Positions 1 to 9,988 of a DNA stretch of 61,601 bases are shown one piece after another. Both the position numbers and the translations under genes were made by a program. Source of the DNA: a bacterium (lineage in GTDB: Bacteria > Bacillota_I > Bacilli_A > RF39 > UBA660). The notes beneath the pieces were generated by a model. It ran no database searches, had not been told where the DNA came from, and worked only from the letters and a program-made list of their open reading frames with translations. Positions within the stretch are counted from its first letter, which is position 1. Every line of letters begins with the position of its first letter. Where the stretch lies: assembly GCA_029100545.1 (NCBI GenBank), contig JAQXPH010000010.1, positions 1 to 61,601 of the forward strand, read 5' to 3'.

Positions 1-1716
1 AGTATTATTTAAATTTTCATAATTAATAAATCTTCCATGTGAAAAATTCTTTTTCTCATGAATTATGCAATTAAATATACCAGATTCAATAATTTTACTT
101 TCTAAATCATAACAAGCTGTATCAGTATAATCACCGCGAAACAAATTTAATACTTTGTGTTCTCTCATCTTCATTATTATATCTTTATTAATTATATTTT
201 CTATTTTTTTATTCCAATTATTAATTGATTTTTTAATAAATTTTTCAATATCAACATTGTAGTTGGCCTTTTCAAGATAATGTTTTAAAAATATTGCCGC
301 TGGAGCAACTGCACCCTCAAATGATAAAAATCCACGTTCTTTTCCTTTATTAGATGAAGTTCTATAACTCAAAATATTTTTCTTTAAAATTCCAGTTTTT
401 AGTACAATATTTTGTAATTCTCCTTTAGTAACAATATATATATTTTCCTTGTTTAAATCTTTAACACTTGTAATAATATCATTTGTTGTTCCAGAATATG
501 AAAATAATACTACCTTATCTATATTATTATTATTTCTATATAAAACATCTCTAGGATACATTGAATATGTATTACATCCATATAACAAATTTATAATTTT
601 AGCAGCAAAATAAGCTCCAGCATATGAGCCGCCAGTTCCAATAAATAAACAATTATTATTTTCATTAAAAATAATATCCTCAATTTTACTACTTGCTGAG
701 GAGTTAATTGCATTAATAATTCTTGTTTCAAGATTATTTATATTTATATTACAACGTTTGATTTTTTTTCTTTCATTATATATAAAATTTTCACAAGTAC
801 ATTCGTTATCTATCTTTTTTACTTTAAATAATGTATTAATATGTCCCCTTGCTCCCATTTTAGAAACAACTTTAGCTGTTAATTTGCTTGAATTTTCATA
901 CCATTTTTCAAACATGTCTTTATTATAGACAAAATTGTTTTTTATACAATCTCTTATTATACTAGAGATAAAAGCGTCACCAGCACCTGTAGGATCTATA
1001 ACCTTGCCTTTACTTCTTAATTCAAAATTGTACTTTTTTCCTTCGCTAACAAAAGTTGCACCATTTTCACCACGTGTAATAGTCATAAAATTTGGATTTA
1101 AAATATTATATAAATCTGCATCATTATTTAAATTTAATCTCTTTATTAAATATTTTGATACTCGCTCATTAAAATTAATAATTTCAAATTTACTATTTAG
1201 CTTATCTATTATTTCATTATCAGATATATTTTCTAATTCAAAATATTGTCCTAAATCAATTATTTTTCTATTATTAGTGTTATCAATCAGTATTTGGTTT
1301 TTATCATTTAAACTATCAAATATCAAAATATCATCATCATTGATATTTTTTTTAATATTATCCGTATTAATCAAACTATTTTCATACCACTTTTTATTAT
1401 TACAAAAAGGGCATCTTTTTTTTGAAGCAAATGATAGCTTACCATCATTGTCAAAGTATGATACATGAAAACATCTAGTCCTCACATCATCTAAAATTAT
1501 AATATTCTTTACATCTACACCTAATTTTTCAAGACTTTTAATTGCTATTTCACCTTGCATATCCTTCCCACATGTACCAAACACTGTTGTTTTAATACCC
1601 ATTTTTGCCAAATTAGCAATAATATTATGAGAAGTCATTCCACCATTTATACCAAGAAGTTTTTCATTCTTATAATAATAATCTGTTACAAGATCACCTA
1701 TGCTAACTACTCTCAT
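1..1716 (-). CDS. PfkB-family carbohydrate kinase fused to two SIS (sugar isomerase) domains; 3'-partial (>572 aa, runs off window)
   Basis: Not in ORF track; translated by hand. ATG at 1714-1716 overlaps upstream TGA (ATGA). MRVVSIGDLVTD..GINGGMTSHNIIANLAKMG..FGTCGKDMQG, PfkB signature VIDPTGAGDAF (about 970-1003), then SIS motifs FIGTGGSYAGA, FSYSGTT, DLESKIIESG..NFSHGR. No stop across the kinase-SIS linker (721-900) and the same frame reaches base 1. Confidence 0.85.
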   Translation of the reverse strand, partial: MRVVSIGDLVTDYYYKNEKLLGINGGMTSHNIIANLAKMGIKTTVFGTCGKDMQGEIAIKSLEKLGVDVKNIIILDDVRTRCFHVSYFDNDGKLSFASKKRCPFCNNKKWYENSLINTDNIKKNINDDDILIFDSLNDKNQILIDNTNNRKIIDLGQYFELENISDNEIIDKLNSKFEIINFNERVSKYLIKRLNLNNDADLYNILNPNFMTITRGENGATFVSEGKKYNFELRSKGKVIDPTGAGDAFISSIIRDCIKNNFVYNKDMFEKWYENSSKLTAKVVSKMGARGHINTLFKVKKIDNECTCENFIYNERKKIKRCNININNLETRIINAINSSASSKIEDIIFNENNNCLFIGTGGSYAGAYFAAKIINLLYGCNTYSMYPRDVLYRNNNNIDKVVLFSYSGTTNDIITSVKDLNKENIYIVTKGELQNIVLKTGILKKNILSYRTSSNKGKERGFLSFEGAVAPAAIFLKHYLEKANYNVDIEKFIKKSINNWNKKIENIINKDIIMKMREHKVLNLFRGDYTDTACYDLESKIIESGIFNCIIHEKKNFSHGRFINYENLNNT

Positions 1717-4049
1717 TTTATAATACTCCTTCTATATTCTCCTACTTCACTTTTTTCATTATAATCGTGGTTTTTTATTAAGCACTCTATTATCTTTTTC
1801 CTATTTAGATCAAATACACCAAGAGAGTCGGTATAATCAACTTCTCCATTTTCTTTTTTCCAATTATTATCTTTCCAACTATATGAACTACTAAAACATA
1901 ATCCATATATGTAATTAAAGAATAAATTATAATCAACTGCTGATGGATTATCTAAAAACATTTGATCAATTCTATTAATACTAGGATACCTGACAATACA
2001 AATATTATTAACACTAATATTACAATCATATAACGAATTAATAGCAAGTTGCAATGTCTTTCCTGTTAAAACATTATCATCAAATAAATCCACATTTGAA
2101 TTTTCAAAAATTTCAGAATTCATTAAACCGCCGAAATCTCTAATATTAAATTTCCTTAAATCTAAAAGTTGTTTATTTGTATATCCAGATACTTCCTTAT
2201 TAAATTTTAATAGTATTATTTTATCAATCCTGTTTTGATCAATTATTTTAGCTAATAGTGGAAGTTCTATACCACCATAACTTAGGCCACATGCATTTGC
2301 AAATTTATTACTATCACATTTTTCTTTATATAAAGATACAGCAATATAGTTTTCTGCAAAATTATCAATTTCTCTATAAGCTCTGTAATTCTTAGAATAA
2401 TCTTTAGCATCATCATTGTTTAGTTCTTGTGTCATGTTATTAAGTAATACTTCTTTTGTACTATTTATTATTTCAATGATATTTTCCTTATCAACAATGT
2501 ATTGATTTTCAAAACATATTTTACCCATTAATTTCTCTATTTCCATAATAGTAGCATACAATATGTTATTAGTATTTTCACCTTCTAAAGAAATATCTAA
2601 TAAAATATTTTTATCAAAATAGTTAGACACTAAATAATGATTAATTAAAACTAGTAAAACATTTCTACAATTATCCAAAATTCCTAATAATAGTTTTTTA
2701 TTAATTTGATTATTTAAGTCTTCAGTAGATAAAACTGCATTTATAGAATCATCTAAGAATCTTACATTATTCTCATACCAACTTATTACATCTTTTTTAG
2801 AAGTAACATCTTTTCTATTAATACTTAACCTATTTGATATAAAATAGTAATAAGTCTTTGATCCCCTAAGAAGAAAATTGTTATTGTCTCTTAATGAATA
2901 CATTAATGATTCATTTTCTGAAGATAGCCAAAAATCTTTTAAAGGACTATTTTGTAATAGTTCCATCTCATACATTGGAATAATTATACTTCCACTTTCT
3001 TTATCAAATAAATCATCAATCCCGTTACAATTATTGAAGCTACTGCCTATCATATTATTATATTTTTTTAAAAGTACTTGTCTTCCTGTTACAATATTAC
3101 CTTCAACTCTTGCAAAATTATGTTTATAAGTATCTTTTTCTGCTTTTTCCAACGATACAGTTGGTAAAATCATAGCACTTTTTACCAATTGTAATGTTGC
3201 ATCTACTCCTTTTAGAATGTTCCCATACTCATCAAAGATTGGAAAACATGAATTATAAGAACCACTTGTTTTATCAACACTATAGCCTTGATTACAGTTT
3301 AGCATTGCATAATCATTACCACGTTGATCTCCACAATCTCCAATTCTAATCATAGAATTTTGAGGTACGCCTATTATTTTTTCTGTTCTTTCAATTGCTT
3401 GATCTTTAGTGGCAGTGCCTATCTGAATAACAGAATTATTTTTGTATACGCCTCTTGTTAAATGAATACTATTTAAACCATTCTTTATTACATATCTATC
3501 TATATTATCAAATATTGAATTAATTATTCCATCATTATGAATATTAAATACCATTCTTATATTTAAAATTTGATTTGTTTTTAAATCTTTAGAGTAAGTT
3601 ATATCAAAATAATCACTTTTGTCTAATTTATTTTTAATTTTCTTAATAATTTGGTCTACTATTAGTAATTGATTTAATTCTACTTCTGTTGTTATATAAA
3701 CATTTTCACCTAAAAACTCTTTTTGTGAAATTGCATTACTATAAAATAATCTTGCACCATCATTTGTCAAAACATATATTCTTTTCATATCACTATCAGT
3801 AATACTAGCACTAGTTTTTATTCGTGGATAAATATCACATTTTAAATCTTCCAATCCTGTTTCACCACGACCTGTTATAAATACAACTGGTATTTTCCTT
3901 GCTAGTAATTCAATAATCATGTCTATTGCTTTATCATCAATATTTTTAGTGTTTTTAGTAGTTAATGTGCCATCAATGTCAAAACATACTGCATTATATT
4001 TTTGTTCTAATGATTTAAAATAATTTTCAAACAAAATATTTCTTTCCAT
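1713..4049 (-). CDS. HAD-IIB (Cof/PMM-like) phosphatase fused via a helical region to a C-terminal type I phosphoribosyltransferase domain
   Basis: HAD motifs FDIDGTL, ITGRG, K, IGDCGDQRGNDYAML; C-terminal CGLSYGGIELP and PRPP-binding loop VDLFDDNVLTGKTL. Confidence 0.8.
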   Translation of the reverse strand: MERNILFENYFKSLEQKYNAVCFDIDGTLTTKNTKNIDDKAIDMIIELLARKIPVVFITGRGETGLEDLKCDIYPRIKTSASITDSDMKRIYVLTNDGARLFYSNAISQKEFLGENVYITTEVELNQLLIVDQIIKKIKNKLDKSDYFDITYSKDLKTNQILNIRMVFNIHNDGIINSIFDNIDRYVIKNGLNSIHLTRGVYKNNSVIQIGTATKDQAIERTEKIIGVPQNSMIRIGDCGDQRGNDYAMLNCNQGYSVDKTSGSYNSCFPIFDEYGNILKGVDATLQLVKSAMILPTVSLEKAEKDTYKHNFARVEGNIVTGRQVLLKKYNNMIGSSFNNCNGIDDLFDKESGSIIIPMYEMELLQNSPLKDFWLSSENESLMYSLRDNNNFLLRGSKTYYYFISNRLSINRKDVTSKKDVISWYENNVRFLDDSINAVLSTEDLNNQINKKLLLGILDNCRNVLLVLINHYLVSNYFDKNILLDISLEGENTNNILYATIMEIEKLMGKICFENQYIVDKENIIEIINSTKEVLLNNMTQELNNDDAKDYSKNYRAYREIDNFAENYIAVSLYKEKCDSNKFANACGLSYGGIELPLLAKIIDQNRIDKIILLKFNKEVSGYTNKQLLDLRKFNIRDFGGLMNSEIFENSNVDLFDDNVLTGKTLQLAINSLYDCNISVNNICIVRYPSINRIDQMFLDNPSAVDYNLFFNYIYGLCFSSSYSWKDNNWKKENGEVDYTDSLGVFDLNRKKIIECLIKNHDYNEKSEVGEYRRSIIK

Positions 4050-4054
4050 ACTAT

Positions 4055-4570
4055 CTACCTCTTTAACAAAAACTCTAAGCTCTTAACTTTTTCATCAGTA
4101 TCATTATCAATTGTTGGGTCAAAAATCAAACCTCTTCCTCCATTTTCAATCCATCTCTTAATATTCTTTTTAGAATCATCAATTAACAATTGATTATTTG
4201 GAATTACTACTTGATGTTTTTTTACACCAGGTGGAACAAAAATCACCGGGCATAAAATTTCCAAACTTTTTCTCAATACTTCCATTTTTACTTTCATTTC
4301 TTGAAGTGTATGAATTTTTGTTAAAATTGCTATCTTCCTTTTTAAACTTTCAAGTTCTTTTATTATTTCAACAGAATTATTGATTGACGTAGCTTCTTTT
4401 ATGATATAATCCCATTCTTCCGGATGTAAATTTGTATATTCAAAATATGCATCAAATTCAATCTCATTTTTATGATCATGAAGCCCTAAATCATATTTTC
4501 TTTCTAACATTCTTTCTTCAGAATCTAGTATTACTCCATCAAAATCAATAAATGTATAATCAGTTGTCAT
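4055..4570 (-). CDS. HAD-superfamily 5'(3')-deoxyribonucleotidase-like (NT5C-like) phosphatase
   Basis: FIDFDGVILD, IAILTK, LLIDDSKKNIKRWIENGGRG. Start moved to ATG 4570 (alternative 4576) behind AAGGGGGA; the track start at 4606 lies in the promoter. Confidence 0.7.
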   Translation of the reverse strand: MTTDYTFIDFDGVILDSEERMLERKYDLGLHDHKNEIEFDAYFEYTNLHPEEWDYIIKEATSINNSVEIIKELESLKRKIAILTKIHTLQEMKVKMEVLRKSLEILCPVIFVPPGVKKHQVVIPNNQLLIDDSKKNIKRWIENGGRGLIFDPTIDNDTDEKVKSLEFLLKR

Positions 4571-4587
4571 AACCATATTCCCCCTTA

Positions 4588-4620
4588 AATACATTATAAC
4601 ACACAAAATTGAAATATTTC
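4588..4620 (-). promoter_or_regulatory. Extended -10 promoter (TGTTATAAT) of the HAD/PRTase/PfkB operon with palindrome GAAATATTTC near the -35 position
   Basis: TATAAT at 4593-4598 preceded by TGT; no TTGACA; perfect 10-bp palindrome at 4611-4620. Confidence 0.55.
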
Positions 4621-4627
4621 GTCTTTT

Positions 4628-5218
4628 TTATTTAATATTATTAATTCTTTTTAATTCAAAGTGCCTTATATCATTTCTTAATTCGCAAAATGCCGTAACA
4701 TAATAGTTATCTTTATATTTAAATAAATGAAGTGGATGAATTATTCTTTTTGATTGTCCACCATCAATATCATTATAAACTATTTCAATTTTATCATTTT
4801 TATTTATAGCAGCTTCAATCAATTTTTCAATCTCACCTGATGCACGTAAGTTTATATTTGAAATATATTTACTTTTCTCATCATAAATTGAATACATTTT
4901 TTTCGCTTTTTCTAAAAGTTCTTTAAGCTTATCTAAATATTTAAAATCACTCTTTAATAATAAATTATATATATTTTCTAATAATTGAATATCATATTTG
5001 TTAATGCTGGTATAATTTTTAATTTTGTCTATCATAAAGTATCCACCATTTGGTCCTTTAAATGATTCAATTGCAATTCCATTAGCACAAATTTCACTTT
5101 TATAATAGCGTATCATTCTTTCAGTTACACCTATTTTTTCTGATAATTCTTTTAATGTATAAATGTTTCCTGTATTTAATAAATCTATCATATACATCAT
5201 ATTTGATAATTTACCCAT
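4628..5218 (-). CDS. HTH-WYL domain transcriptional regulator (short, no WCX domain)
   Basis: N-terminal wHTH (TLKELSEKIGVTERMIRYY..GPNGGY); WYL domain IEIVY..SKRIIHPLHL..NYYVTAFCELRNDIRHFELKRI. Confidence 0.9.
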   Translation of the reverse strand: MGKLSNMMYMIDLLNTGNIYTLKELSEKIGVTERMIRYYKSEICANGIAIESFKGPNGGYFMIDKIKNYTSINKYDIQLLENIYNLLLKSDFKYLDKLKELLEKAKKMYSIYDEKSKYISNINLRASGEIEKLIEAAINKNDKIEIVYNDIDGGQSKRIIHPLHLFKYKDNYYVTAFCELRNDIRHFELKRINNIK

Positions 5219-5234
5219 AACATCACCTATCTAC

Positions 5235-5250
5235 AATACATTATAACACA
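5235..5250 (-). promoter_or_regulatory. Extended -10 promoter of WYL gene
   Basis: TGTGTTATAATGTATT upstream of AGGTGA RBS; same 16-mer as at 4588-4603. Confidence 0.55.
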
Positions 5251-5294: not shown

Positions 5295-5673
5295 TTATAT
5301 TATCTTTTTATAAATTGATATGACATATAAATCCATACAATCAGAATTTTTATCATATATGACATTATTAATAATTGGAATCATATGATAAAAATTTTTC
5401 TTATCATAACAGAACACAATATATGAATAATTATCTATTTTTAAATCTTTAACTTTAATATTCCCATCACAATTAACTTTAATAATATTATTATCTTCAA
5501 AGTATTTTTCAAATACTGGAATATCATTAAATGAAGAACAATTTAATTCTTTTGCAACTTTACATAAGCTATTATGAACATCATCATATTCTGTATTTAA
5601 AATCTTACATAAACTTCTTATTACGCAATTACTTTTACCATTTTTATCTGATATAAAATTCTTTAAATGTCAT
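5295..5673 (-). pseudogene. Frameshifted small protein (NCVIRSL...HMIPIINNVIYD; possible papain-like Cys/His fold)
   Basis: ATG 1 nt after the upstream stop gives MTFKEFYIR*; a shifted frame continues SDKNGKSNCVIRSLCKIL...YKKII* to TAA at 5295; span 379 nt = 3n+1. Confidence 0.7.
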
Positions 5674-5674
5674 A

Positions 5675-6163
5675 TTAATCTCCAATCTTTTTTATATTTG
5701 TATACATCCTTGAATGATATCCATTTCTATCATAAAATCTAATAGCATTTACATTATAAGCAAATACATCTACTAAAACATATTCACATCCTACTGATTT
5801 AAAATATTCTTCCATTTTAGAGATAAGCATATTACCTATACCCTTACTTCTTGCATTTTTAGAAACTATTAACTCAGTTATTTCACCACGTTTAGGGCAT
5901 TTATAGTCAAGATAGTCATATAGATCATATGGAAATATACACCCCATAATCAATCCTATTACTTTATCATTCTCAACAGCCAAATAACATTTACCATTAT
6001 TATTTTTTACTTCTTCTAAATCTAGAACTGCCATTTTATCTCTATATTCTGGATGAACTTGATCTAAGTTATCTTTATCTATTGAAACAATATATTCTTC
6101 AAGTTCAACTAATAAATTCTTTATATCTTCTAAATATTTATCTTCATATTCAATTATTTTCAT
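5675..6163 (-). CDS. GNAT family N-acetyltransferase
   Basis: ITELIVSKNARSKGIGNMLI acetyl-CoA motif; NVNAIRFYDRNGY. Confidence 0.9.
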   Translation of the reverse strand: MKIIEYEDKYLEDIKNLLVELEEYIVSIDKDNLDQVHPEYRDKMAVLDLEEVKNNNGKCYLAVENDKVIGLIMGCIFPYDLYDYLDYKCPKRGEITELIVSKNARSKGIGNMLISKMEEYFKSVGCEYVLVDVFAYNVNAIRFYDRNGYHSRMYTNIKKIGD

Positions 6164-6761
6164 TATTAAAATAATCCTCTCTTGTTAATTCATATTTAGA
6201 AAAAGTTAATAATTCATCATAAAAGGTATAAGGTGATTCTTCTATTACTTCACCAACTTTATTAAATCCTAATTTTTCAAATATTCTACAAGATGCAGTG
6301 TTATCTTTTACTGCACCAGAAGAAATTTCTATTATTTCTACTTCTTTAAACATATAATCTATCATTGCTTTAGCTGCTTCAGTTGCATAACCTTTTCCTT
6401 GATAAGTAGGATCCATATACCAACCTACATCACGAATAGTTATATCTTCTCCGTTTTCTTGAGCAGATACTTGTCCTATTATTTCTTCATAACCACTATT
6501 TGTGTATTTAGGTTTCAAAAATACACTCCATACAAATATATCATTATTATTTGATTTAAGAACTTTAGACTTATAAAACTTCTTTTGATTTTCCCAAGTC
6601 CAATGTTCAGGATTATTTGCAAGTTTTTTAGCACCTGTTAAATACCATTTATTTACATCTGGTATCATTAATATCTCCCATAATCTTTTTTGTTCTTCCA
6701 TCTTAGAGCTTCTTAAAATTAATCTTTCTGTTTCTATTGTTTTACTTCCAATCAGATTCAT
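6150..6761 (-). CDS. RimJ/RimL-type GNAT acetyltransferase
   Basis: IETERLILR, VGWYMDPTYQGKGYATEA, NTASCRIFEKLGF. Confidence 0.9.
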   Translation of the reverse strand: MNLIGSKTIETERLILRSSKMEEQKRLWEILMIPDVNKWYLTGAKKLANNPEHWTWENQKKFYKSKVLKSNNNDIFVWSVFLKPKYTNSGYEEIIGQVSAQENGEDITIRDVGWYMDPTYQGKGYATEAAKAMIDYMFKEVEIIEISSGAVKDNTASCRIFEKLGFNKVGEVIEESPYTFYDELLTFSKYELTREDYFNNENN

Positions 6762-6911: not shown

Positions 6912-7667
6912 TTATACACGTGTATTACCCCACCAATCAGGAATTAATTCTTCTAATTTTACAATTTCTTTAGTATTAATATCTTTTAATATTTCAACAT
7001 TTTTACTATTTTTAGATAGCTGCATCATATATTCTCTACATGCTCCACAAGGTGAACCAACATTACCTTTTGAATCAACACATACTAGTTTTATAATTTC
7101 ATTTTCACCATTTGTAATCATATTAGCAATAGCATTTCGCTCTCCACACATGCCAAGTGTTGATGCAGTATCAATGCATACTCCTGTATAAATATTATGG
7201 TTTTTAGTAAGTATTGTTGCTCCTACTCCTCCTGCACTAATCATACCTGATACATCTCTTGGATTTCTTACATTTTTTGCCTTTTCATATAGTTCTTCCC
7301 AAACAGTATTTTCACTATATAAATATTCAATATGAATAGCATATACACCATTTTTCTTAATAGCTTCTTCATATCCATCTAATTTACTTACATTTTTAAT
7401 TGCTTCTTCTTTATCATTAGTAGATGAAGTTGTATATCTTGTTCCTTCTAAAGTAAATAATTCTTCTAAAGAATTATAATGATTTACTTCTTTAACTTTA
7501 ACATAAAATACACCTAAATTATCACTAGTAAATTCTATAATATCATTTTGTTTTAGCTTACTATAATCATGTTCACTATTTTCTTTGTTTGCTCTTATTT
7601 CTACTCTCTTTGTTTTATTTTTAATAGCTAGAGCTGCTCTATCATTAATATTTAATTTCATTATCAT
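6912..7667 (-). CDS. ASCH domain - cytidine deaminase (blasticidin-S deaminase-like) fusion
   Basis: N-term IKNKTKRVEIR..NDIIEF..VKVKEVNHYNSLEELF (ASCH/PUA-like); C-term Zn motifs MCGERNAI and SPCGACRE. Confidence 0.8.
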   Translation of the reverse strand: MIMKLNINDRAALAIKNKTKRVEIRANKENSEHDYSKLKQNDIIEFTSDNLGVFYVKVKEVNHYNSLEELFTLEGTRYTTSSTNDKEEAIKNVSKLDGYEEAIKKNGVYAIHIEYLYSENTVWEELYEKAKNVRNPRDVSGMISAGGVGATILTKNHNIYTGVCIDTASTLGMCGERNAIANMITNGENEIIKLVCVDSKGNVGSPCGACREYMMQLSKNSKNVEILKDINTKEIVKLEELIPDWWGNTRV

Positions 7668-7918: not shown

Positions 7919-8323
7919 CTATATTATTATTTCATCCTTTGAAAGATGCCACTGCTTTATTGATACTACCACATCATTTGCTGAAGCCATTGCTACACCT
8001 TTTAATAAATCTTTTACTTTATATTTATCTCCAGGATTTAAAAATATTTGACTTCCACCCATAGAAGAAGCTTCCTGACTAATTTCTACTATATCATCAT
8101 ATTTTATTACTCCTTCATCAATTTTTTCCATAATTAGTAGTAAACTCATTATTTTTGTCATAGAGGCCATTGCAAGTTTTTCATTTTCATTTTTTTTATA
8201 TAAAACTTTTCCAGTATTTTGATCTATTAATATTGCACTTTTCGCACTAATCTCCATTTCTGCAGCATTTACTGGAAGTAAAAATGAAAACATTAATAAA
8301 ATAATTAAAATTATTTTTTTCAT
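7919..8323 (-). pseudogene. dacF: 5' half of a DacF-like D-Ala-D-Ala carboxypeptidase (peptidase S11), truncated after the SxN motif
   Basis: Signal peptide, ASMTK (SxxK), ASSMGGSQIFL, ASAND (SxN), then unrelated residues and a stop; KTG motif and C-terminal domain absent. Confidence 0.8.
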
Positions 8324-8428
8324 AAACACCTACCTTATAGTAATTTTTATTACTATTTTTATAAAAAATGACTATTTTATTTGAAATGATTACTTATTTT
8401 GATATAATTTTTATAGGAAGGTGAAAAC

Positions 8429-9988
8429 GTGTCAAAGAAAAAAGAAAAGAAAGAAATATATAAGTCTTCAAAATGGTTATTAGTTTTTTTAATTGCAATA
8501 TTATCTATAATGGTAGTAATTCGTAATAAAACACTTGATAATGATATATGGTATTTACTTTCTGAAGGAAGACATATTCTAAATAATGGTTTATATCATA
8601 TTGATCCACTATCAATGCATGAAGGATTAAATGTTGTAGTTCAAAATTGGCTTTCTGCTTCAGTATTATGGGTTATATATGACTTCTTCGGAGAAATGGG
8701 ATTACTTTTACTTATAGTACTTTGTAATATAGCAATATGTGTTTTATTATATAAAATATGTTATTTAATTAGTGAAGAAAATAAAATATTATCAACTATT
8801 ATAATGTTTATTTGTGATATGACTTTAATAACTCATTTTATAGTATCAAGACCTCAAATATTTAGTTATATTACATTACTTGGTCTTATTTATGCCTTAG
8901 AATTATATATTCATAAAAAAGATAAAAAATATTTAATTTGGATACCAATAATATCATTTATTCAAATTAATATGCATGCATCTTTATGGATAATGCTATT
9001 TCTATTTATATTATGTTATGTTATTGATTCATTTCATTGTAAAAATTTAAGATTACAAGGTTATGAAAAAAAACCACTTTTTATTGCTATTATTATCGCT
9101 ATTTTAGTAGGTTTTATAAATCCATATGGTTATAAAGCAATAACATTTATATTTGGAAGTTTTTTAGATAGTTATATGCGAATATTTATTAAAGAATTAC
9201 TTCCATTTAGTATTAATAATGATTTATGTAAACATATGGCAATAATAATATTAATTATTGGTCTTATTTATACATATTTTAGAGAAGGAAATGTAAAAGT
9301 AAGATATATTTGTTTATTTTGCGGAACAATGATACTAGGATTCATGGCAATTAAAGGATTTAGTAATTTTATATTAGTGGCCTTTTTCCCACTTGCATAT
9401 TTTTTCAAAGATATGGTTCCTAAAGATTTAAGAAATGTATTTTTACCAGTTCAAAAAATAATTAATATAATATTTATTAGTTTTGCTTGTTTAGTTATAA
9501 TTGGATTTGGCTATGTATATATTTCAAATAAAAACACAATTACTTTAAAACATAATGCACAAGGAGCTATTGATACGCTTTTAAAATATACTGATAAAGA
9601 AGATGCTACTGTATATTCATCATTTAATGATGGTGGTTATGTAGAGTTTAGAGGATTAAAAGCTTATATAGATCCTAGAGCAGAATATTATTTAAAGAAG
9701 AATAATGGCAAAGCAGATATTTTTAAAGAATTTTATGATTTACAACATGGTTCTTTAGATACTAAAGAATTTATTAAAAAATATAATTTTACACACTTGC
9801 TTGTCGCAGATACAGATTATTTATATAATAAAATAAATACTGAAACTGATAATTATTTTATACTTTATGATAATACTGAACTTGGTTATAGATTATATTG
9901 CAGAAATGATATGTTTAGTGATGAAGAAAGAAAAAAAGTAATAGATAGTTATAATAAAGTTATTGAAGAAGCTAAAAAGAATCAATAA
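8429..9988 (+). CDS. Polytopic membrane protein, probable GT-C (lipid-phosphate-sugar dependent) glycosyltransferase
   Basis: Many TM helices; DNDIWY after TM1, RPQIFS, NMHAS, INPYG, C-terminal extracellular domain with YIDPRAE. Confidence 0.55.
   Translation: MSKKKEKKEIYKSSKWLLVFLIAILSIMVVIRNKTLDNDIWYLLSEGRHILNNGLYHIDPLSMHEGLNVVVQNWLSASVLWVIYDFFGEMGLLLLIVLCNIAICVLLYKICYLISEENKILSTIIMFICDMTLITHFIVSRPQIFSYITLLGLIYALELYIHKKDKKYLIWIPIISFIQINMHASLWIMLFLFILCYVIDSFHCKNLRLQGYEKKPLFIAIIIAILVGFINPYGYKAITFIFGSFLDSYMRIFIKELLPFSINNDLCKHMAIIILIIGLIYTYFREGNVKVRYICLFCGTMILGFMAIKGFSNFILVAFFPLAYFFKDMVPKDLRNVFLPVQKIINIIFISFACLVIIGFGYVYISNKNTITLKHNAQGAIDTLLKYTDKEDATVYSSFNDGGYVEFRGLKAYIDPRAEYYLKKNNGKADIFKEFYDLQHGSLDTKEFIKKYNFTHLLVADTDYLYNKINTETDNYFILYDNTELGYRLYCRNDMFSDEERKKVIDSYNKVIEEAKKNQ

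Follow-up and report, generated by a model that had tools for sequence, protein, structure and literature searches.

The window analysed here, a stretch of 61,601 nucleotides, is the initial 61.6 kb of contig C10 in a bacterial genome bin of 1.13 Mb (57 contigs, 92.8% complete, 1.75% contamination, ~24% G+C). At its left end lies an operon in which a small helix-turn-helix (HTH) regulator with a WYL domain is followed by a small phosphatase of the HAD family, a 778-amino-acid (aa) protein joining a HAD-IIB phosphatase to a phosphoribosyltransferase (PRTase)-like domain, and a fusion of a PfkB kinase with a double SIS domain. We tentatively favour its reading as a self-contained accessory operon, switched by the WYL protein, that would build or process a riboside or nucleoside-like small molecule: an acceptor would be phosphoribosylated and then dephosphorylated, and the resulting riboside tailored. 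The catalytic motifs of the operon enzymes are all conserved in sequence comparison, the two large genes stay together from locus to locus, and a predicted operator accompanies the regulator gene. The features of the operon are the following:

1..1716, minus strand: PfkB kinase/double-SIS fusion gene, first 572 codons, the 3' end being cut by the contig start (full-length relatives have 651 aa)
1713..4049, minus strand: gene of the 778-aa fusion, with HAD-IIB at ~1-296, a helical and small beta middle part at ~300-560 and a type I PRTase-like part at ~565-778
4055..4576, minus strand: small HAD phosphatase gene, 173 aa from an ATG behind an AAGGGGG ribosome-binding site (the mechanical open reading frame starts at TTG 4606)
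4593..4623, minus strand: predicted WYL operator and extended -10, with operator GACGAAATATTTC at 4623..4611, a 9-nt spacer and extended -10 TGTTATAAT at 4601..4593
4628..5218, minus strand: HTH-WYL regulator gene, 196 aa (Pfam: WYL 58.1 bits, HTH_11 24.8 bits)

Gene order, linkage and spread of the operon

All four genes lie on the minus strand, and direct reading gives a 5-nt gap between the small HAD gene and the 778-aa gene (TAG ATAGT ATG) and an ATGA overlap between the latter and the PfkB/SIS gene, in agreement with the original prediction, which was made from the letters of the window and had described four co-oriented genes with this spacing. The motifs that it named (DIDGT, DDNV and GAGD) are likewise present in the window translations, and the absence of a transporter and of a LacI-type regulator that it had pointed out holds for the window and for the conserved gene set. 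It had further supposed that genes lie past the left edge; since window position 1 is the start of contig C10, further genes are to be expected there, and a contig of the likely source run extends 1009 nt beyond that position.

The conservation of this arrangement was followed in two sets of loci, from genomes and from metagenomes, which may overlap, the metagenome loci being close relatives only (52-91% identity), as they were retrieved with a narrow C-terminal alignment (A6). The PfkB/SIS gene is found downstream of the HAD-PRTase gene in 37/40 genome loci with the full gene, the three exceptions being one locus with a recombinase gene downstream (L049) and two contig ends, and in 73/78 metagenome loci; the remaining five break off with the contig, in one case behind a NADAR gene. 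Two Mycobacterium genomes (23-24% identity) and a metagenome-assembled genome (MAG) of the Clostridia likewise keep the two genes side by side, so that the adjacency of the homologues, which had been proposed as a check, is true across more than 100 loci. On the other side of the fusion gene, where this is visible, the WYL gene lies upstream in 33/39 genome and 62/67 metagenome loci, and the small HAD gene in 33/39 and 55/67, respectively. Operons without a WYL gene adjoin tRNA genes in three loci (L015, L090, L057).

Between the two large genes nothing is inserted in ~80 loci, a CAT gene together with an alpha/beta hydrolase gene in ~18, the hydrolase gene alone in 4, and a DHH phosphoesterase gene with an APH-like kinase gene in ~8. 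The operon mostly occupies ordinary chromosomal, recombinase-free contexts. The fusion gene was found in 3/40 relatives, all of the same genus, in 1/399 other genomes of the phylum sample, and in 0/400 other genomes of the phylum to which the Mycobacterium genome belongs. It is interrupted, at varying positions, in 15 of 104 full-span loci, as against 3 of 100 for the PfkB/SIS gene (Fisher p 0.005), the loci counted being non-independent and some of the breaks perhaps artefacts of assembly. That the HAD-PRTase gene is often broken or deleted where the PfkB/SIS gene is intact suggests either that the transferase is costly or that the kinase/isomerase has a use of its own.

The WYL regulator and its predicted operator

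The presence of a WYL regulator, on which the original prediction drew, is borne out, as the operon has its own WYL gene and a predicted operator. The chain of the regulator ends with the WYL domain at residue 196, without the C-terminal WCX extension that is typical of the WYL-regulator family; the generic WYL model of PADLOC matches it at 2.6e-25, and its PDB matches are weak, to the WYL domains of BrxR and PafBC. As with BrxR, CapW, PafBC and DriD, an HTH-WYL protein stands at the head of an operon, here with a predicted operator at the promoter. Unlike these regulators, it has just 196 aa and no domain after WYL, and the genes under its control encode metabolic-type enzymes rather than a known defence or DNA-repair system. 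Indeed, when tested against this class, the genes downstream of the regulator match no PADLOC model.

The spacer 3' of the WYL gene is short and strikingly conserved across loci. It carries the operator motif GACNHAATRYTKC, in one copy per locus, in 33/35 WYL loci of the genome set and, at the same position, in 56/62 of the metagenome set, whereas the motif is present in 0/11 and 0/18 of the respective loci without WYL. Extra copies amount to only 4 in ~2 Mb scanned on both strands. The consensus is a palindrome, GAC-N2-AATATT-KC, whose centre (AAATATTT) is itself palindromic, some loci having variants such as TAATATTG or CAATATTG; it spans ~-37 to -25 of an extended -10 promoter, TGnTATAAT. 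In 42/56 metagenome loci the extended -10 is placed 9 nt downstream of the operator. The combined pattern of operator and -10 has a single match in the window (4593-4623) and 0 in 100 shuffles. Three other copies of the operator motif in the 1.1-Mb genome were dismissed as chance, because they all lie inside coding DNA and have no -10. Position 4593..4623 is the predicted promoter of the enzyme genes, which would drive the small HAD, the HAD-IIB/PRTase fusion, the optional pair and the PfkB/double-SIS fusion. An Rfam scan of 10 loci returned tRNAs only and no riboswitch.

The enzymes of the operon

The 778-aa protein has no Pfam hit at E<=0.01, and its PRTase part goes unrecognised by Pfam even at E<=5; its assignment rests on motifs, on family profiles run against the PDB and on a confident AlphaFold model (predicted local distance difference test, pLDDT, 91.2; predicted template-modelling score, pTM, 0.91). 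In 43 sequences of 20-46% identity, DxDGT, T28, K215, GDxGxxxGND and DDNxxTGxT are invariant or nearly so. The N-terminal part is a Cof-type HAD of subfamily IIB, as indicated by motifs I-IV and a C2B cap, with TIGR01484 scoring 25.6 bits, below its cut-off of 41.8. Its family profiles match YidA (2.5e-10) and the IMP 5'-nucleotidase ISN1 (2e-7) in the PDB. By fold, VIA aligns it with 3pgv (Z 21.0, root-mean-square deviation 2.6, 225 residues aligned) and with many Cof phosphatases (Z 16-20), while ISN1 comes first by Foldseek (1e-8) and reaches Z 16-17 by VIA. The fold-search lists covered this HAD part and the PfkB part of the kinase/isomerase; residues 300-778 and the SIS half were assigned by sequence only.

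The C-terminal part contains the loop LFDDNVLTGKT, which would bind phosphoribosyl pyrophosphate (PRPP). Among the 43 sequences D658 and N659 are invariant and D657, T662 and T665 are at least 90% conserved, and in the model a strand at 652-659 precedes the loop, so that the acidic pair followed by T/S-G-x-T after a hydrophobic strand, as defined for type I PRTases (PF00156), is present. The profile of this part finds PyrR (3.4e-4) and HPRT (0.008-0.04), which are weak matches, and that of the middle and PRTase parts together matches 28 times in the PDB at E<=10, each time to a type I PRTase or a helical bundle. In the ESM Atlas the labels are 'Phosphoribosyltransferase' and 'SIS' only (scores 0.88-0.90). 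The HAD/PRTase fusion that had been proposed stands for its HAD part by motifs, profiles and fold, and is consistent, for its PRTase-like part, with the PRPP loop and the weak PDB profile matches just given. The family is large, with 607 close relatives in 90% clusters and 377 cluster representatives at 50% identity, many of them ~800 aa long at 22-47% identity.

The small HAD protein retains motifs I-IV (DxDGV, T85, K118/119 and D132/D133, conserved in 21 sequences). It had been called NT5C-like, of which the HAD assignment is kept and the likeness to NT5C is not: there is no Pfam hit at E<=0.01, no NT5C match and no meaningful PDB match.

In the third enzyme, the PfkB assignment is clear, with a Pfam score of 60.8 bits against a cut-off of 25.8 (PF00294) and the GAGD anion hole with its catalytic Asp. 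G244, G246, Asp247 of GAGD, Cys102/105/306 and S408-G409 are invariant and T410 nearly so; three to four cysteines (102, 105, 306, 308) and the SIS loop YSGTT are conserved. By fold, the nearest relatives of the kinase half are the Methanocaldococcus jannaschii nucleoside kinase, PH1459, aminoimidazole riboside kinase and the M. tuberculosis adenosine kinase, with fructokinases and ribokinases almost tied with these nucleoside and riboside kinases; Foldseek gives 2c4e at 3.8e-16 (TMt 0.70). In NCBIfam a fructokinase model comes first for the kinase and two ribose-1-phosphate kinases follow, the latter in keeping with a riboside-type substrate, although every score is far under its cut-off. The SIS half scores 18.6 bits in the window protein, below the Pfam cut-off of 25, and 28.3 in the Mycobacterium orthologue, and it has weak PDB profile matches of the AgaS/GlmS type (2aml 0.003, 1j5x 0.005, GlmS 0.013). 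The PfkB/SIS-SIS fusion of the original prediction is therefore upheld for the kinase and, for the isomerase half, is consistent with the conserved YSGTT loop and the two alpha/beta units that are modelled there (pLDDT of the whole 89.8).

Relatives in other settings

Relatives of the fusion protein occur in a variety of contexts. Whole family proteins are fused to a TrpF-like isomerase and TIM barrel (P0174), to a TIR domain (P0178) or, in four clusters, to a metallophosphoesterase, and the middle and PRTase parts are fused to a TyrRS-like domain (P0241, P0225). On the Bacillus cereus plasmid pRML02 (NZ_CP011157.1), a stand-alone homologue of the middle and PRTase parts (28% identity, 1e-32) adjoins a CAT gene, whose product is 33% identical to the operon CAT (2e-35), and an NT5C-type HAD gene. 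The surroundings (L065 3449-18773) resemble a biosynthetic gene cluster, with an acyl carrier protein, an adenylating enzyme, pyridoxal phosphate-dependent enzymes including an aminotransferase and a decarboxylase, BtrH_N, an ABC transporter and an extra metG, the methionyl-tRNA synthetase gene; its product may be of the aminoacyl-nucleoside type. In another locus (L056), the second gene upstream of the operon encodes a non-ribosomal peptide synthetase (NRPS) of C-A-T-R organization, the first being a histidine-kinase gene. The plasmid cluster and the adjacent NRPS point to small-molecule biosynthesis.

In a further locus (L096), the HAD-PRTase gene, accompanied by NADAR, comes last in a co-oriented cluster of GT4, GT2, O-antigen-ligase-like/Alg14, Alg13-like and DUF1972 genes. 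A Sulfitobacter conjugative plasmid (NZ_CP018081.1) has one protein that joins the SIS pair (profile E 5e-20) to the HAD-IIB domain (E 7e-24) of the operon families, a Rosetta-type fusion that supports the metabolite reading, and a PfkB kinase gene three genes beyond it, with no PRTase. The five genes of this cassette (L159 7941-15012) lie between conjugation genes and include three unknown proteins, one of them with a P-loop, for which no PDB match was found. The SIS-HAD fusion together with the kinase shows that the triad can stand without the PRTase.

Proposed route to a riboside-type product

In the route that we tentatively favour, the WYL protein would bind its operator as a dimer over the -35 region and gate transcription, most simply as a repressor, and a nucleic-acid or nucleotide-like ligand would release it. 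Once the enzymes are made, the PRTase-like domain would move 5-phosphoribose from PRPP, or from a related sugar bisphosphate made by the partner enzyme, onto the acceptor, and the fused Cof/ISN1-like HAD would strip the distal phosphate to leave a riboside. The PfkB kinase, which is nucleoside/riboside-kinase-like, and the double SIS domain, as a ketol isomerase, would either prepare the sugar-phosphate substrate or re-phosphorylate the riboside, and the small HAD would take off a second phosphate. The optional pairs would add and remove a phosphate (APH-like kinase and DHH) or an acetyl group (CAT and alpha/beta hydrolase); such add/remove pairs are typical of the tailoring or self-protection of a bioactive compound. 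As for the biological role, involvement in conflict or stress seems a likelier reading than core catabolism.

Several points weigh against this route. The enzyme activities, the product and the acceptor are all predictions, as is the direction of WYL control, repressor or activator. The PRTase part is the one that Pfam does not recognise, with PDB profile matches that are weak (3.4e-4 to 0.1), and the fold-search matches are confined to the HAD and PfkB domains. A futile cycle would result if kinase and phosphatases shared one riboside instead of working on different intermediates, and the operon has no exporter. Moreover, the PfkB/SIS gene is intact without HAD-PRTase or WYL in four related genomes (G007, G008, G017, G024; loci L155, L156, L157, L158), in three of which it occupies a locus where sister species have the entire operon; since it persists alone, the two proteins are not strictly interdependent.

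Comparison with known systems indicates which parts of this logic have precedents. In the gPRT-PRP dual-domain ribofuranosyltransferases of Klebsiella O4/O7 and the Haemophilus influenzae type b capsule polymerase, a PRPP-dependent gPRT works with a HAD-family PRP phosphatase (PMC11127046, PMC11231755, in the parts accessible), so that a PRPP-dependent transferase and a HAD phosphatase that removes the 5-phosphate reside in one polypeptide, as is predicted here. The transferase of the operon differs in its type I PRTase PRPP loop and in having no sequence match to other PDB chains, and its gene stands beside a PfkB/SIS fusion, a second HAD and a WYL regulator, with a glycan cluster in 1 of ~118 loci. 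A gPRT structure is present in the PDB.

Similarly, a PRTase and HAD module for a 'nucleoside-like metabolite' has been predicted in Ter (tellurite-resistance) clusters (PMC7824862, in the part accessible), where, in an accessory setting of stress or conflict, a nucleobase-type PRTase followed by a HAD phosphoesterase would yield a nucleoside-like product. Compared by description, the present operon differs in that it has no Ter proteins, its domains are fused, and PfkB/SIS and WYL are specific to it. Related PRTase-HAD logic is found in toyocamycin biosynthesis (ToyH/ToyI). In the ADP-heptose pathway, GmhA (SIS), the N-terminal part of HldE (PfkB) and GmhB (HAD) likewise combine an isomerase, a PfkB kinase and a HAD phosphatase on one sugar phosphate; here, however, the SIS part is a double domain and there is no nucleotidyltransferase. 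Membership of the GmhA/HldE/GmhB families was rejected, with scores far under the cut-offs (rfaE_dom_I 45.8 bits against 345).

No account of the gene set was found in the open literature, and the statement of the original prediction that this is not a named system agrees with that and with the lack of a PADLOC match. If the favoured reading holds, the operon represents a compact, undescribed route to a riboside-type metabolite, present in uncultured small-genome Bacilli (more than 100 gut-metagenome loci), in Mycobacterium, in a Clostridia MAG and, as a partial set, on an alphaproteobacterial conjugative plasmid. Its sharply defined predicted operator offers a handle on what a minimal WYL sensor detects, and it brings to light a PRTase-like family unseen by Pfam and a natural series of swap-in gene pairs that modify and unmodify. 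Should it serve ordinary sugar or nucleoside salvage, its value would be smaller, and the family annotation and the operator would stand.

Alternative explanations

The alternative that survives best, although we consider it rather unlikely, is an anti-phage or conflict system in which infection or DNA damage would lift the repression by the WYL protein and the enzymes would drain PRPP or nucleotides, make a toxic nucleotide analogue or phosphoribosylate a nucleic-acid base. It would account for the WYL regulator with its predicted operator, for the presence of the genes as cargo of serine-recombinase elements here and in five other loci (L018, L020, L070, L071, L049), for the very patchy spread (3/40, 1/399, 0/400) and for the frequent interruption of the HAD-PRTase gene (15/104 against 3/100 for PfkB/SIS), as expected of a costly gene. 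The family fusions to TIR or metallophosphoesterase and the adjoining NADAR genes in L049 and L096 fit as well, and, compared by description only, NADAR with PRTase (DS-32) and metallophosphatase with HAD (DS-9) protect Escherichia coli from phage (bioRxiv 10.1101/2025.01.08.631726, in the part accessible). These links to conflict systems, by way of the TIR and NADAR partners and the DefensePredictor systems described in that part of the preprint, are ones of analogy only.

On the other hand, no PADLOC-DB 2.0 family was matched at E<=0.1 by the small HAD, the HAD-PRTase, the DHH, the APH-like or the PfkB/SIS protein, only the WYL protein having a match. Among 150 flank proteins (three per side at 27 loci) no defence family recurs beyond the 5 matches of the commonest model, to hybrid histidine kinases, and DpdF-like or PDC-S02 neighbours occur at single loci. 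Searches of 50,697 phage records and of IMG/VR gave no relative, and most loci are recombinase-free. The link to anti-phage defence that had been proposed for the operon is thus unsupported, both for the enzymes themselves and for the defence neighbours that had been suggested as a check; of the idea of a stress- or phage-induced pathway that phosphoribosylates and dephosphorylates something, the chemistry is still the best reading. A bolder form, which we regard as improbable, is a new conflict system in which a minimal WYL sensor would unlock a SIS-PfkB-PRTase-HAD assembly line that turns a central sugar phosphate into a non-canonical nucleoside or nucleotide, such as one with an altered sugar, or would reversibly phosphoribosylate nucleic-acid bases with NADAR as the eraser, the swappable phosphate and acetyl write/erase pairs protecting the producer.

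It is unlikely that the operon salvages or catabolises a sugar, an amino sugar, an Amadori compound or a nucleoside, in which case PfkB/SIS would act as fructokinase plus phosphoglucose/phosphomannose isomerase (PGI/PMI) or as FrlD/FrlB, and the HADs and PRTase would feed nucleotide salvage. Indeed, the best NCBIfam matches are a fructokinase for the kinase half (1.2e-16) and a PGI/PMI subfamily for the SIS half (1.3e-6); a relative bears the label 'FrlB-like' in one source, the four genomes mentioned above retain PfkB/SIS alone, and the carriers are gut bacteria whose genomes are reduced to ~1.1 Mb. These scores are, however, all far under their cut-offs (fructokinase 61 bits against 450, PGI/PMI 28 against 317), and FrlD/FrlB membership was rejected (FrlD NF007321 34.2 bits against 247; no FrlB model at E<=0.1). 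Furthermore, the window and the conserved set have no transporter or sugar-type regulator, most close relatives do without the operon, and WYL control and inserts of kinase/phosphoesterase or acetyltransferase/esterase type are unusual in catabolic operons.

It is distinctly unlikely that the operon serves the ribofuranosylation of a surface glycan or glycolipid, with the HAD-PRTase protein working like gPRT plus PRP and the island altering the cell surface. The two-step logic and the fused HAD are as in the gPRT-PRP enzymes (as far as the accessible parts of those sources go), the gene in L096 is at the end of a glycan gene cluster, and the operon of one genome (G002) is adjoined by a GT28/MGDG-synthase-like gene and an acyltransferase gene. 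Yet L096 is the single locus of its kind in ~118, the G002 neighbours go no further than the two just named, and genes for a glycosyltransferase, a flippase or a membrane protein are missing from the conserved set. The middle and PRTase profile matched only type I PRTases in the PDB, with kinship at the level of the fold still possible, and PfkB/SIS and the small HAD would be left without a role. Finally, an antibiotic- or xenobiotic-modifying island, in which the operon and its neighbours would inactivate an aminoglycoside- or nucleoside-type compound, is highly unlikely, for although the accessory genes are of drug-modifying families (APH, CAT, two GNATs and the cytidine-deaminase family), all resistance-equivalog scores are far under cut-off, the core of PRTase, PfkB and SIS has no resistance precedent, and the modifying enzymes are optional and paired with enzymes that undo the same modification.

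The element that splits dacF

Read in the direction of transcription on the minus strand, the window leads from an N-terminal fragment of dacF through an ASCH/cytidine-deaminase gene, two GNAT genes and a frameshifted reading frame to the HTH-WYL, small HAD, 778-aa fusion and PfkB/SIS genes. The features of this region are:

5296..5672, minus strand: frameshifted small open reading frame of ~125 codons with Cys...His motifs, a single frameshift lying near an A-run (three-frame translation)
5675..6163 and 6150..6761, minus strand: two GNAT acetyltransferase genes (Pfam: Acetyltransf_1 71.4 bits, Acetyltransf_3 82.8 bits)
6912..7667, minus strand: ASCH/cytidine-deaminase-family fusion gene (dCMP_cyt_deam_1 29 bits, ASCH 19 bits; PRK05578 75.6 against a cut-off of 74)
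7919..8329, minus strand: N-terminal fragment of dacF, a DD-carboxypeptidase gene (Peptidase_S11 profile positions 5-112)
~7965-7975: element junction in dacF, GATGTGGTAGT

The broken dacF that had been taken to bound the region is confirmed, its other half lying on contig C21, where Peptidase_S11 positions 126-238 and PBP5_C are found beside a large serine recombinase of 561 aa (L009 9083-11519). Aligned with an intact dacF of 384 aa, residues 1-127 are in the window and 120-375 on C21. The two sides share an imperfect junction core, GATGyrGTAGT, at 7965-7975 of the window and 9864-9874 of L009, and the halves would rejoin in frame. The operon is here the cargo of a non-prophage, large-serine-recombinase element, which bears out the island that had been postulated. 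Indeed, the whole element is present on single contigs in L018 and L020, in the order dacF N-terminal part, cargo, WYL, HAD, HAD-PRTase, PfkB/SIS, recombinase and dacF C-terminal part, and also in L070 and L071, there with DHH and APH genes.

A second copy of the operon ends contig C21 (L009 11863-16763) and is 87-88% identical throughout; this contig carries the C-terminal 316 aa of the fusion, DHH/DHHA1, an APH-family kinase, a 651-aa PfkB/SIS, the recombinase and the dacF C-terminal half. The two contigs were considered as a simple strain bubble with a shared upstream arm, which was rejected because over 7.1 kb the C21 allele shares 95.6% identity with L070/L071, whereas the C10 allele is just 86-89% identical to any island found. 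Depth is 15-18 on the C10 operon against 16 on its flank, a coarse measure, as it comes from Logan contigs; joints with sides of 20-25 nt, taken to be AT-rich repeats or other organisms, were not used. The C10 and C21 copies may be tandem elements or may belong to two co-binned strains.

Within the cargo, the GNAT pair lies directly 5' of the WYL gene also in six other loci (L020, L137-L141) and may therefore belong functionally to the operon. The frameshifted frame is absent between GNAT and WYL in L020 and is probably a pseudogene or an assembly error.

A second case of a HAD-PRTase gene on a recombinase element that cuts a host gene is locus L049 (4040-9809). It comprises a topoisomerase gene, three open reading frames of 73-78 codons, NADAR, HAD-PRTase and a serine recombinase, beside which lies an N-terminally truncated EPSP-synthase-family gene, then ftsQ and ftsA.

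Elements that intervene in sporulation genes are known from skin in sigK, SPbeta in spsM and gin in gerE (PMC5595907, PMC4191935, PMC5025042, in the parts accessible). The element described here resembles them in that a large-serine-recombinase element halves a sporulation-associated gene whose halves would rejoin in frame, and differs in its target, dacF. In B. subtilis, dacF is expressed in the forespore, and an excision of the mother-cell type is therefore not expected. No report of dacF as a target was found in the open literature on sporulation gene-intervening elements, and the dacF-splitting recombinase element represents a further candidate for this class.

Other features of the window and the bin

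Directly outside the island and divergent from dacF, a gene at 8429..9988 (plus strand) encodes a multi-pass membrane protein of 519 aa without a Pfam match. Contigs C13, C17, C28, C40, C41 and C51 and other contigs of 1-2.6 kb in the source bin (G000) have 36-62% G+C, against ~24% elsewhere, and are probably binning contaminants. On C21, L009 148-1011 (minus strand) encodes a 287-aa protein with ~20 tandem proline-rich units (PVVExPAEPVQT) and a C-terminal membrane anchor.

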